Shown here one piece after another: positions 14,523-52,187 of a stretch of 64,000 bases of DNA. Source of the DNA: Escherichia coli (lineage in GTDB: Bacteria > Pseudomonadota > Gammaproteobacteria > Enterobacterales > Enterobacteriaceae); assembly GCF_048403405.1 (NCBI RefSeq), contig NZ_CP183129.1; one strand, given 5' to 3'. The translations under genes and the position numbers were made by a program. Numbering within the stretch: the stretch's first letter is position 1; each line of letters begins with the position of its first letter. The notes beneath the pieces are model-generated. The model was not told the origin of the DNA. It saw nothing but the letters and a program-made list of their open reading frames with translations, and made no database searches.

Positions 14523-15976
14523 ATGTATATCGGGATAGATCTTGGCACCTCGGGCGTAAAAGTTATTTTGCTCAACGAGCAGGGCGAGGTGGTTGCTTCG
14601 CAAACGGAAAAGCTGACCGTTTCGCGCCCGCATCCACTCTGGTCGGAACAAGACCCGGAACAGTGGTGGCAGGCAACTGATCGCGCAATGAAAGCCCTGG
14701 GCGATCAGCATTCTCTGCAGGACGTTAAAGCATTGGGTATTGCCGGCCAGATGCACGGTGCAACCTTACTGGATGCCCAGCAACGGTTATTACGCCCTGC
14801 CATTTTGTGGAACGACGGGCGCTGTGCGCAAGAGTGCGCTTTGCTGGAAGCGCGAGTTCCGCAATCGCGGGTGATTACCGGTAACCTGATGATGCCCGGA
14901 TTTACTGCGCCTAAATTGCTATGGGTTCAGCGGCATGAGCCGGAGATATTCCGTCAAATCGACAAAGTATTGTTACCGAAAGATTACTTGCGTCTGCGTA
15001 TGACGGGGGAGTTTGCCAGCGATATGTCTGACGCAGCTGGCACCATGTGGCTGGATGTCGCAAAGCGTGACTGGAGTGACGTCATGCTGCAGGCTTGCCA
15101 CTTATCTCGTGACCAGATGCCCGCATTATACGAAGGCAGCGAAATTACTGGTGCTTTGTTACCTGAAGTTGCGAAAGCGTGGGGTATGGCGGCGGTGCCA
15201 GTTGTCGCAGGCGGTGGTGATAATGCAGCTGGTGCGGTTGGTGTAGGAATGGTTGATGCTAATCAGGCAATGTTATCGCTGGGGACGTCGGGGGTCTATT
15301 TTGCTGTCAGCGAAGGGTTCTTAAGCAAGCCAGAAAGCGCCGTACACAGCTTTTGCCATGCGCTACCGCAGCGTTGGCATTTAATGTCTGTGATGCTGAG
15401 TGCAGCGTCGTGTCTGGATTGGGCTGCGAAATTAACGGGCCTGAACAATGTCCCAGCTTTAATCGCGGCTGCTCAACAGGCTGATGAAAGTGCCGAGCCA
15501 GTTTGGTTTCTGCCTTATCTTTCCGGCGAGCGTACACCACACAATAATCCCCAGGCGAAGGGGGTTTTCTTTGGTTTGACTCATCAACATGGCCCCAATG
15601 AACTGGCGCGAGCAGTGCTGGAAGGCGTGGGTTATGCGCTGGCAGATGGCATGGATGTCGTGCATGCCTGCGGCATTAAACCGCAAAGTGTTACGTTGAT
15701 TGGTGGCGGGGCGCGTAGTGAGTACTGGCGTCAGATGCTGGCGGATATCAGCGGTCAGCGGCTCGATTACCGTACGGGGGGGATGTGGGGCCAGCACTGG
15801 GCGCAGCAAGGCTGGCGCAGATTGCGGCGAATCCAGAGAAATCGCTCATTGAGTTGTTGCCGCAACTGCCGTTAGAACAGTCGCATCTACCAGATGCGCA
15901 GCGTTATGCCGCTTATCAGCCACGACGTGAAACGTTCCGTCGCCTCTATCAGCAACTTCTGCCATTAATGGCGTAA
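14523..15976 (+). pseudogene. xylB: xylulokinase reading frame broken by a 1-bp contraction in a G run (about 15775-15782)
   Basis: ORF 14523..15875 carries the first 420 codons then reads out of frame; the C-terminal 63 codons (VGPALGAARLAQIAANPEKS...) lie in frame +1 at 15785..15976. 420 + 1 + 63 = 484 codons if one G is restored. Confidence 0.8.
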
Positions 15977-15980
15977 ACGT

Positions 15981-16009
15981 TATCCCCTGCCTGACCGGGT
16001 GGGGGATAA
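15981..16009 (+). terminator. hairpin downstream of xylB (weak terminator)
   Basis: Inverted repeat tatcccc ... ggggata; no strong T-tract. Confidence 0.3.
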
Positions 16010-16143
16010 TTCACATCTATATATATCAGTAATTAATTAATATTTAGTATGAATTTATTCTGAAATCATTTGTTAATGGCATTTTTCAGTTTTGTCTTTC
16101 GTTGGTTACTCGTAATGTATCGCTGGTAGATATGGAGATCGTT

Positions 16144-48620: not shown

Positions 48621-48809
48621 ATGAATAACAATGAACCAGATACTCTGCCTGATCCCGCGATAGGCTATATCTTCCAGAATGATATTTTGGCGTTAAAGCA
48701 GGCATTTTCACTGCCTGATATTGATTATGCCGATATTTCCCAACGCGAACAGTTGGCCGCGGCATTAAAACGCTGGCCGTTGCTGGCAGAGTTTGCGCAA
48801 CAAAAGTAG
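48621..48809 (+). CDS. bcsR: BcsR (62 aa)
   Basis: Start at MNNNEPDTLPD inside a longer ORF; immediately upstream of bcsQ. Confidence 0.75.
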   Translation: MNNNEPDTLPDPAIGYIFQNDILALKQAFSLPDIDYADISQREQLAAALKRWPLLAEFAQQK

Positions 48810-48820
48810 GGGATTGGTGA

Positions 48821-49573
48821 ATGGCCGTACTGGGATTGCAGGGGGTGCGGGGAGGCGTGGGGACAACAACCATCACCGCCGCATTAGCCTGGTCATTACA
48901 AATGTTGGGAGAAAATGTCCTGGTGGTCGATGCCTGCCCGGACAACTTGTTGCGCCTGTCATTTAACGTTGATTTTACCCACCGTCAGGGCTGGGCCAGA
49001 GCTATGCTGGATGACCAGGACTGGCGTGACGCCGGGTTGCGCTATACCTCGCAGCTCGATTTGCTGCCTTTTGGTCAGTTATCCATTGAAGAACAAGAAA
49101 ATCCACAGCACTGGCAAACCCGGCTGAGCGATATTTGCTCCGGCTTACAGCAACTAAAAGCCAGCGGGCGTTACCAGTGGATTTTAATCGACTTACCGCG
49201 TGATTCCTCGCAGATAACCCACCAGCTGCTGAGTTTGTGCGATCACTCGCTGGCAATCGTCAATGTGGATGCCAACTGCCATATCCGGCTGCATCAGCAG
49301 GCGCTGCCGGATGGCGCGCATATTTTGATTAATGACTTCCGTATCGGCAGTCAAGTTCAGGACGATATTTACCAGCTTTGGTTGCAAAGCCAGCGCCGAT
49401 TACTGCCAATGCTCATTCATCGTGATGAAGCGATGGCTGAATGCCTGGCGGCTAAGCAACCAGTCGGTGAATATCGCAGTGATGCGCTGGCCGCTGAAGA
49501 GATACTGACGCTGGCTAACTGGTGCCTGTTGAACTATTCCGGGCTGAAAACGCCAGTCGGGAGTAAATCATGA
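48821..49573 (+). CDS. bcsQ: cellulose synthase operon protein BcsQ, ParA/MinD-like ATPase (250 aa), full length
   Basis: Uninterrupted 250-aa ORF; codon 6 (48836-48838) is TTG; deviant Walker A GVRGGVGTT. Confidence 0.9.
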   Translation: MAVLGLQGVRGGVGTTTITAALAWSLQMLGENVLVVDACPDNLLRLSFNVDFTHRQGWARAMLDDQDWRDAGLRYTSQLDLLPFGQLSIEEQENPQHWQTRLSDICSGLQQLKASGRYQWILIDLPRDSSQITHQLLSLCDHSLAIVNVDANCHIRLHQQALPDGAHILINDFRIGSQVQDDIYQLWLQSQRRLLPMLIHRDEAMAECLAAKQPVGEYRSDALAAEEILTLANWCLLNYSGLKTPVGSKS

Positions 49574-52187
49574 GTATCCTGACCCGGTGGTTGCTTATCC
49601 CGCCGGTCAACGCGCGGCTTATCGGGCGTTATCGCGATTATCGTCGTCATGGCGCGTCGGCTTTCAGCGCGACGCTCGGCTGTTTTTGGTTGATCCTGGC
49701 CTGGATTTTTATTCCGCTGGAGCACCCGCGCTGGCAGCGTATTCGCGCAGAACATAAAAACCTGTATCCGCATATCAACGCCTCGCGTCCGCGTCCGCTG
49801 GATCCGGTCCGTTATCTCATTCAAACATGCTGGTTACTGATCGGTGCATCGCGCAAAGAAACGCCGAAACCGCGCAGGCGGGCATTTTCAGGTCTGCAAA
49901 ATATTCGTGGACGTTACCATCAATGGATGAACGAGCTGCCTGAGCGCGTTAGCCATAAAACACAGCATCTTGATGAGAAAAAGAGCTCGGCCATTTGAGT
50001 GCCGGGGCGCGGCGGTTGATCCTCGGTATCATCGTCACCTTCTCGCTGATTCTGGCGTTAATCTGCGTTACTCAGCCGTTTAACCCGCTGGCGCAGTTTA
50101 TCTTCCTGATGCTGCTGTGGGGGGTAGCGCTGATCGTACGGCGGATGCCGGGGCGCTTCTCGGCGCTAATGTTGATTGTGCTGTCGCTGACCGTTTCTTG
50201 CCGTTATATCTGGTGGCGCTACACCTCTACGCTGAACTGGGACGATCCGGTCAGCCTGGTGTGCGGGCTTATTCTGCTGTTCGCCGAAACGTACGCGTGG
50301 ATTGTGCTGGTGCTCGGCTACTTCCAGGTAGTATGGCCGCTGAATCGTCAGCCGGTGCCATTGCCGAAAGATATGTCGTTGTGGCCGTCGGTGGATATCT
50401 TTGTCCCGACTTACAACGAAGATCTCAACGTGGTGAAAAATACCATTTACGCCTCGCTGGGTATCGACTGGCCGAAAGACAAGCTGAACATCTGGATCCT
50501 TGATGACGGCGGCAGGGAAGAGTTTCGCCAGTTTGCGCAAAACGTGGGGGTGAAATATATCGCCCGTACCACTCATGAACATGCGAAAGCGGGCAACATC
50601 AACAATGCGCTGAAATATGCCAAAGGCGAGTTCGTGTCGATTTTCGACTGCGACCACGTACCAACGCGATCGTTCCTGCAAATGACCATGGGCTGGTTCC
50701 TGAAAGAAAAACAACTGGCGATGATGCAGACGCCGCACCACTTCTTCTCACCGGACCCGTTTGAACGCAACCTGGGACGTTTCCGTAAAACACCGAACGA
50801 AGGCACGCTGTTCTATGGTCTGGTGCAGGATGGCAACGATATGTGGGACGCCACTTTCTTCTGCGGTTCCTGTGCGGTGATTCGCCGTAAGCCGCTGGAT
50901 GAAATTGGCGGCATTGCTGTCGAAACCGTGACTGAAGATGCGCATACTTCTCTGCGTTTGCACCGTCGTGGCTATACCTCCGCGTATATGCGTATTCCGC
51001 AGGCGGCGGGGCTGGCGACCGAAAGTCTGTCGGCGCATATCGGTCAGCGTATTCGCTGGGCGCGCGGGATGGTGCAAATCTTCCGTCTCGATAACCCGCT
51101 CACCGGTAAAGGGCTGAAGTTTGCTCAGCGGCTATGTTACGTCAACGCCATGTTCCACTTCTTGTCGGGCATTCCACGGCTGATCTTCCTGACTGCGCCG
51201 CTGGCGTTCCTGCTGCTTCATGCCTACATCATCTATGCGCCAGCGTTGATGATCGCCCTGTTCGTGCTGCCGCATATGATTCATGCCAGCCTGACCAACT
51301 CGAAGATCCAGGGCAAATATCGCCACTCTTTCTGGAGTGAAATCTACGAAACGGTGCTGGCGTGGTATATCGCACCACCGACGCTGGTGGCGCTGATTAA
51401 CCCGCACAAAGGCAAATTTAACGTTACCGCCAAAGGTGGACTGGTGGAAGAAGAGTACGTCGACTGGGTGATCTCGCGGCCCTACATCTTCCTTGTTCTG
51501 CTCAACCTGGTGGGCGTTGCGGTAGGCATCTGGCGCTACTTCTATGGCCCGCCAACCGAGATGCTCACCGTGGTCGTCAGTATGGTGTGGGTATTCTACA
51601 ACCTGATTGTTCTTGGCGGCGCAGTTGCGGTATCGGTAGAAAGCAAACAGGTGCGCCGATCGCACCGCGTGGAGATGACGATGCCCGCGGCAATTGCCCG
51701 CGAAGATGGTCACCTCTTCTCGTGTACCGTTCAGGATTTCTCCGACGGTGGTTTGGGGATCAAGATCAACGGTCAGGCGCAGATTCTGGAAGGGCAGAAA
51801 GTGAATCTGTTGCTTAAACGCGGTCAGCAGGAATACGTCTTCCCGACCCAGGTGGCGCGCGTGATGGGTAATGAAGTTGGGTTGAAATTAATGCCGCTCA
51901 CCACCCAGCAACATATCGATTTTGTGCAGTGTACGTTTGCCCGTGCGGATACATGGGCGCTCTGGCAGGACAGCTATCCGGAAGATAAGCCGCTGGAAAG
52001 TCTGCTGGATATTCTGAAGCTCGGCTTCCGTGGCTACCGCCATCTGGCGGAGTTTGCGCCTTCTTCGGTGAAGGGCATATTCCGTGTGCTGACTTCTCTG
52101 GTTTCCTGGGTTGTATCGTTTATTCCGCGCCGCCCGGAGCGGAGCGAAACGGCACAACCATCGGATCAGGCTTTGGCTCAACAATGA
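49570..52187 (+). pseudogene. bcsA: cellulose synthase catalytic subunit reading frame split by a 1-bp contraction in an A run (49976-49985)
   Basis: ORF 49570..49998 gives the first 138 codons plus 4 out-of-frame codons; the rest (730 codons with the QxxRW and PilZ regions) is in the +1 frame from 49995. 138 + 4 + 730 = 872 codons if the run gagAAAAAgag is gagAAAAAAgag. Confidence 0.8.

Follow-up and report, generated by a model that had tools for sequence, protein, structure and literature searches.

In Escherichia coli K-12, a premature stop codon in bcsQ results in a cellulose-negative phenotype, and in Haemophilus, Neisseria and Campylobacter, poly-G/C tracts form phase-variable contingency loci. 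Loss of function in the bcs genes has been reported for 74 of the 76 common sequence types (STs) of E. coli (PMC10881479). In particular, clade 8 of ST95, which includes strains S88 and MS7163, carries a bcsA frameshift, which has been presented as a case of convergently attenuated cellulose production (Nhu et al. 2024, PMC10881479); this lesion is inherited clonally (218 of the 232 clade 8 strains), and its correction in MS7163 restores cellulose (PMC10881479). Single-nucleotide frameshifts in published E. coli and Shigella genomes have also been deemed sequencing errors (Touchon et al. 2009, PMC2617782). Here, we analyze a 64 kb stretch of an E. coli chromosome (hereinafter, the window), which extends from yiaL and the xyl region through glyQS and dpp to the bcs cluster and yhjJ, and in which xylB, the gene for xylulokinase, and bcsA, the gene for the catalytic subunit of cellulose synthase, are each disrupted by the loss of one base from a homopolymer. 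The interpretation that we favor, and to which we give about an even chance, is that both lesions are real, recent and independent slipped-strand deletions.

The lesions in xylB and bcsA

The xylB locus comprises the following features, including two open reading frames (ORFs):

14523..15976, plus strand: xylB (xylulokinase) pseudogene, whole span; counterpart of the intact WP_000275360.1 in six clone-mates
15776..15782, plus strand: xylB frameshift tract of seven G (G7; G8 in six relatives), codons 418-420; from alignment
14523..15875, plus strand: shortened xylB ORF of 450 amino acids (484 expected); about 420 native residues, then an out-of-frame tail
15785..15976, plus strand: residual 3' ORF of xylB, 63 amino acids, in the original frame; stops at the native xylB stop codon

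The frameshift cuts off the last ~64 residues of the kinase, including the ...GPALGAARLA... segment, and the out-of-frame tail of the 450-residue XylB takes the place of the native C-terminus ...DVGPALGAARLAQIA.... Precomputed Pfam matches on an identical product include PF00370 (FGGY_N) and PF02782 (FGGY_C). When one G is put back, the translation becomes a 484-residue XylB identical to the protein of strain MS 69-1, and thus the gene carries a single lesion. The tract is the longest G/C homopolymer of the window, which contains three G/C runs of at least six bases. The xylA-xylB pair lies beside xylFGHR, with the gene order found in annotated relatives.

The features of bcsA are analogous:

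49570..52187, plus strand: bcsA (cellulose synthase catalytic subunit) pseudogene, whole span; counterpart of the intact WP_000025849.1 in clone-mates
49978..49982, plus strand: bcsA frameshift tract of five A (A5; A6 in relatives), codons 137-138; from alignment
49570..49998, plus strand: N-terminal fragment ORF of bcsA, 142 amino acids; from ORF calling
49995..52187, plus strand: C-terminal fragment ORF of bcsA, 730 amino acids, with the GT2 and PilZ domains and without the native start; from Pfam

Here, the frameshift comes after 138 residues and detaches from them the GT2/PilZ catalytic part, which is left without a start codon. The 142-residue N-terminal fragment has no Pfam domain match in the precomputed records; for a product identical to the 730-residue fragment, matches to PF00535, PF13641, PF03552 and PF07238 are on record. 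Putting one A back yields an 872-residue BcsA that is identical to the MS 69-1 protein, so that bcsA, too, carries a single lesion. The gene sits in the bcsRQABZC-bcsEFG cluster, the order of which is the same as in relatives, and its tract is one of ~45 A/T runs of six bases in the window, being shorter than 20 A/T runs that are unaffected.

The initial annotation, made from the sequence alone, had described xylB and bcsA as the only disrupted conserved genes in the 64 kb, each broken by the loss of one base in a run of at least six and free of other lesions. This description holds: restoration of a single base gives intact proteins in both cases, and all other ORFs of the window match in length the intact genes annotated by the Prokaryotic Genome Annotation Pipeline (PGAP) in strain 4621, bcsC (1157 amino acids) included. 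The frameshift in the IS150 transposase is programmed and represents no lesion.

The window is 99.99% identical to six complete RefSeq genomes, namely, 4621, MS 69-1, TUM14771, GN02461, TUM1226 and OX030728, and two additional clone-level assemblies (L071 and L074) show 1 mismatch to the window over 13.6 kb. Among these nine near-identical genomes of the clone, xylB G7 and bcsA A5 are both private to the window's assembly. Compared with 4621 over the full 64 kb, the window shows two substitutions and three one-base insertions or deletions (indels), that is, xylB G8→G7 and bcsA A6→A5 in the window and bcsA G5→G4 in 4621. Private differences were counted over the 50 kb common to all seven genomes (the window and the six relatives), and those of the window consist of the two contractions and one intergenic single-nucleotide polymorphism (SNP):

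43409, no strand: sole window-private substitution, T in the window and G in the six relatives; intergenic, between yhjV and the ldr repeats

Assignment of the clone to ST69 was considered, but the published ST69 pattern, in which 68% have both bcsA and bcsC truncated, does not match the six relatives (PMC10881479).

A survey of homopolymers for excess frameshifts, which the initial annotation had proposed as a check on the assembly, was run on the window for runs of at least five bases, of which there are 274, and revealed no excess. None of the 272 homopolymers other than the xylB and bcsA tracts differs from the six clone-mates, and these unchanged runs include 20 A/T runs of at least seven bases (7-8 bases) as well as both G6 runs. 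The two private indels are both contractions by one base, in runs of eight and six, and comparison with six to eight near-identical genomes detected no further indel of the window in the 64 kb. The window has no generalised error signature, in which contractions would be spread over many runs.

Under the interpretation that we favor, slipped-strand events would have shortened the G8 tract of xylB by one G and the A6 tract of bcsA by one A. Both events appear to be recent because, apart from these lesions, the two operons are intact and match those of the clone-mates exactly. XylB that lacks the C-terminal ~64 residues is predicted to be unable to phosphorylate D-xylulose, so that the strain would be xylose-negative or impaired in xylose use. 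Likewise, the GT2/PilZ part of BcsA, deprived of the first 138 residues and the start codon, would be expected to make no cellulose. Rescue of either gene by programmed frameshifting or transcriptional slippage was considered and rejected, A5 and G7 being short for slippage by RNA polymerase; no conserved signal for such rescue was noticed, although no search aimed at one was made. More generally, the G8 tract might be a mutational hot spot that repeatedly gives rise to G7, at a frequency of roughly 0.1-1%, and the bcsA lesion might be a further case of the recurrent, probably selected loss of cellulose in extraintestinal and invasive E. coli.

The contracted alleles and related lesions in other genomes

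An 89-mer carrying xylB G7 was found in 4 of the 5,196 complete RefSeq genomes (0.08%), those of Ch1, E686, ETEC1701 and M2021-10044802, which represent at least three backgrounds. The exact 450-residue frameshift product occurs on 9-16 contigs, compared with at least 1,000 that have the intact allele, and complete assemblies show no enrichment of G7 over drafts. Three of the contigs with G7 come from the same clone as the window. The NCBI draft GCA_040252855.1 matches the window at 100% over 17.3 kb, with a contig that stops precisely at the IS150 boundary; SRR29466652 does so over 11.8 kb; and in SRR24492470, the contig ends 27 nucleotides into the IS200 that is carried by GN02461. Because SRR24492470 combines G7 with this IS200 junction, whereas GN02461 itself has G8, G7 is present in at least two sublineages of the clone, and intact (ON) and frameshifted (OFF) xylB alleles co-exist in one sublineage.

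In the complete genomes other than Ch1, the surroundings of G7 look clean. No other frameshift was detected within the 50 kb around G7 in ETEC1701 and M2021-10044802; in E686, one other nearby gene, dppA, is marked as frameshifted; and no further frameshift near the site was attributed to a homopolymer in any of these three genomes. Not every E. coli has the tract: in xylB of S88 (NC_011742.1), GGTGGC stands in place of G8. In our reading, G8 is a true hot spot of slippage, and the xylB G7 of the window is probably real.

The bcs genes of the xylB-G7 carriers are themselves damaged. E686 and M2021-10044802 have an internal stop codon in bcsQ, and E686, in addition, a short bcsC; in ETEC1701, a deletion spans bcsG to bcsC. 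Thus, all RefSeq genomes with xylB G7 carry a bcs lesion, but bcs lesions are common, and this may be a coincidence. At locus L078 of S88 (8366-9533 and 1304-2758), where xylB has the GGTGGC sequence, xylR is frameshifted by an 11-bp deletion, alongside the bcsA lesion of that genome.

The bcsA lesion of S88, a genome sequenced by the Sanger method, is a G6→G5 contraction at nucleotides 550-555, equivalent to window positions 50114-50119 (locus L079, 8773-11390). Because this ST95 lesion has been verified by phenotype and yet consists in G6→G5, a homopolymer contraction alone is no evidence of an artefact. Within the clone, the blood isolate 4621 (NZ_CP103479) carries a private G5→G4 contraction in bcsA (window 50542-50546; locus L005, 9570-12187), which, together with the window's A5, makes two independent homopolymer frameshifts of bcsA in one clone. 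Of the three or four homopolymer indels that are private within the clone, two fall in this gene, which holds 8 of the 274 runs (P ~0.003-0.005, in a post hoc test). On this evidence, we lean towards the window's bcsA A5 being real, with less assurance than for xylB.

Two other lesions occur at or directly after the A run. In another lineage, the first base of the run (window 49978) is mutated to give K137* (AAA→TAA; L027, L032 and L033, ~9980); a 730-residue downstream ORF matching K137* was found in 637 index blocks, with contig sizes typical of short-read drafts, and this lineage looks like a large, real bcsA-null clade. In an NCTC assembly (L031), the one base lost is another, the G that directly follows the A run.

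Several observations weigh against both lesions being real. The A5 89-mer is present in 1 of the 5,317 RefSeq genomes, that of the error-laden Ch1; all eight clone-mates have A6 and none has A5; and none of the 15 A5-bearing samples that were inspected comes from the window's clone. The exact 142-residue product was identified on 32 contigs, and most of the other A5 occurrences are in noisy assemblies of one strain. In the accessible part of Supplementary Data 1 of the ST95 study (613 genomes), no bcsA entry begins with 'frameshift 13', the start of the label expected for a frameshift at the A5 codon. Part of the support for G7 comes from Logan runs and NCBI drafts of unverified sequencing platform. 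The window has two private indels and one private SNP, which is atypical for neutral divergence, the ratio of indels to SNPs being far above the usual one. Furthermore, a sequence that continues unbroken for 64 kb, through both the ldr repeats and IS150, indicates that long reads or finished Sanger sequencing were used. Finally, the independent real origin of two alleles as rare as these (~1e-3 and 2e-4) in the same genome is very unlikely, and a shared technical cause is best argued from their co-occurrence and from the example of Ch1. Against such a cause stand the lack of further errors in the 64 kb of the window and the biology of both genes.

Alternative explanations and their consequences

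The strongest competitor, which we regard as possible although it is not the reading we prefer, is that xylB G7 is real and circulates in the clone, whereas bcsA A5 is an isolated consensus error and bcsA is intact. G7 has independent support from the same clone, and A5 has none. Moreover, contraction to A5 has been shown to recur for technical reasons. One strain is represented by five data sets (loci L053-L056 and L059; GCA_949813125.1, SRR13009679, ERR10498726, SRR18681702 and SRR30896116) that show 0-1 mismatches over 11-15 kb; all five have A5, and the other contractions among them, in G6, T7, A7, A6 and T5, vary. Data sets from the same strain that differ only in contracted homopolymers display a technical signature. 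In SRR13009679, A5 is the sole contraction, which demonstrates that an isolated A5 call does occur, and the one RefSeq genome with A5 is that of Ch1. However, none of the 5,317 RefSeq genomes shows what this explanation assumes for the window, namely, A5 standing alone in a complete assembly that is clean elsewhere. The 20 longer A/T runs of the window and both its G6 runs are intact, even though G6 is the tract contracted most often in the noisy data sets, and real homopolymer frameshifts in bcsA are known from 4621 and ST95.

The G6→G5 contraction at 50119 that is seen in A5-bearing contigs had been considered pure noise, which is too simple because the identical contraction is the genuine ST95 lesion. 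In the data sets of the strain that includes L054, it is noise because this one strain shows both G6 and G5.

A second alternative, in which a long-read or flow-based platform left homopolymers under-called at the two sites of the region that are most prone to error and both genes are intact, appears unlikely. Such errors would account for two differences that are both contractions and both private among nine genomes of the clone, and for the excess of private indels over private SNPs. G7 and A5 occur together in only one of the ~5,300 RefSeq genomes, Ch1 (NZ_CP127316.1), which differs from the window by ~1.4% (loci L061 and L062) and is itself multiply frameshifted: within ~100 kb, xylB, bcsA, bcsZ, yiaJ (A7→A6) and selA contain frameshifts, and bcsB has an internal stop. 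We take Ch1 to be a mutator strain or else an assembly that was poorly polished. In addition, among runs with neighboring accessions (for example, SRR30896xxx), at least some of which are visibly noisy, G7 appears in one sample and A5 in others. Yet, Ch1, which also has a T5→T4 contraction, shows about five homopolymer differences in a span of the window's size, compared with none in the window beyond the two. Also at odds with error at both sites are the rarity of G7 in RefSeq, where three of its four carriers have no nearby frameshift that was traced to a homopolymer; the presence of G7 in draft assemblies of the same clone; and the two hits to bcsA at different sites within the clone, which random error does not predict.

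The reverse combination, a real bcsA A5 reflecting pathoadaptive loss of cellulose and an artefactual xylB G7 at the longest G run, is quite improbable: G8 is the longest G/C run, no kind of site is more error-prone, and bcsA is commonly inactivated under selection, but G7, found in drafts of the same clone and in RefSeq genomes that are clean nearby, is far better supported than A5. Least probable of all is a contingency-like switch at the xylB G8 that would turn xylose catabolism off, and possibly back on, with the OFF state accompanying cellulose loss as a common niche adaptation; this idea derives from the bcs lesions in all five G7 genomes examined and from the joint xylR and bcsA lesions of S88, but a phase-variable locus or programmed frameshift is disfavored by the interrupted tract of S88 and the share of OFF alleles (~0.1% of complete genomes).

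Two real slippage mutations remain the preferred explanation. In the initial annotation, a sequencing artefact was called plausible. In support, both sites do collapse in noisy data, in Ch1 and in the strain represented by five data sets, but the window lacks a wider error signature. As the leading reading, an artefact is disfavored by the occurrence of G7 in assemblies of the same clone and in three RefSeq genomes, and by the bcsA homopolymer frameshifts of ST95, which are verified by phenotype. The accompanying hedge, that the data are equally consistent with real slippage, stands, although the comparative data lean to real mutations. On balance, the artefact reading is partly supported and is not the leading one.

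The kind of lesion is ordinary and already known, with nothing mechanistically new, and its importance lies chiefly in how the genome is annotated and its phenotypes are predicted. Real lesions would have the strain scored as xylose-negative and cellulose-negative; in extraintestinal E. coli, loss of cellulose has been associated with increased virulence (PMC10881479). Artefacts, on the other hand, would mean that two functional genes have been wrongly called pseudogenes. The ST95 bcsA lesion (G6→G5) cautions that a homopolymer contraction is not diagnostic of error, and a frameshift allele that turns up in identical form in unrelated noisy assemblies, as A5 does, deserves suspicion.

Other features of the region vary within and beyond the clone. 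The IS150 copy in the glyS/hokA interval (window ~21824-23265) is present in the six clone-mates and, at the same site, in Ch1, M2021-10044802 and GCA_012525875.1; it is absent in E686, and short-read contigs end at its edge. IS200C is inserted in TUM14771 between xylA and xylB (window 14505-14507) and in GN02461 between wecH and yiaA (window 17009-17010); the window has neither insertion. In GN02461, bcsQ is 42 bp longer than in the other clone-mates. Window positions 43540-44911 contain three tandem ldr toxin repeats of ~483 bp each that are 96-97% identical, and the private SNP at 43409 lies directly upstream of them; in TUM1226 and OX030728, these repeats show clustered substitutions that resemble gene conversion between copies. 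In the 3' part of bcsZ (window 54850-55374), paired +1/-1 indels a few bases apart distinguish lineages and amount to compensated local frameshifts; the 2-kb stretch at the bcsZ 3' end is the most divergent from Ch1 (115 SNPs).

Comparison with known systems

The xylB tract resembles the contingency loci of Haemophilus, Neisseria and Campylobacter in that G8 lies in a coding sequence and that in-frame and out-of-frame alleles occur within one clone. It differs from them in that the tract is not conserved (GGTGGC in S88), there is no sign of reversible high-frequency switching, and the OFF state is rare (~0.1-1%).

The noisy assemblies, that is, Ch1 and those at loci L053-L059, contain the same G8→G7 and A6→A5 contractions as the window; in contrast to the window, which has none besides these, they carry several extra contractions per 10-60 kb (yiaJ A7→A6, G6→G5, T7→T6 and A7→A6). 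The frameshifts discussed by Touchon et al. are, like those of the window, isolated one-base events in a single genome, but they affect essential housekeeping genes, in which a real lesion is implausible, whereas xylB and bcsA are dispensable and recurrently lost in nature. For strain UMN026 (NC_011751), which was considered as a possible source of the window, the list of pseudogenes given by Touchon et al. agrees in part: it includes bcsA, but also bcsC, which is intact in the window, and it omits xylB. The exact 450-residue XylB product has no UniRef, UniProt or CAR record, and the literature yielded no useful data on xylose or cellulose phenotypes of UMN026. If the window did derive from this finished genome (ABI3730 Sanger, 12x), real mutations would be strongly favored.

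In the bcsQ lesion of K-12 and the bcsQ and bcsC lesions of E686-like genomes, cellulose is lost through a single bcs point lesion, as would be the case in the window; however, these lesions affect other genes, are nonsense mutations rather than frameshifts, and are lineage-wide rather than private. The bcsA lesion of ST95 and S88 shares with that of the window a one-base homopolymer contraction in the same gene, within a bcs operon that is otherwise intact. The two differ in position, codons 184-185 in ST95 and codons 137-138 in the window, and in distribution, with the former inherited clonally and the latter private to one assembly.

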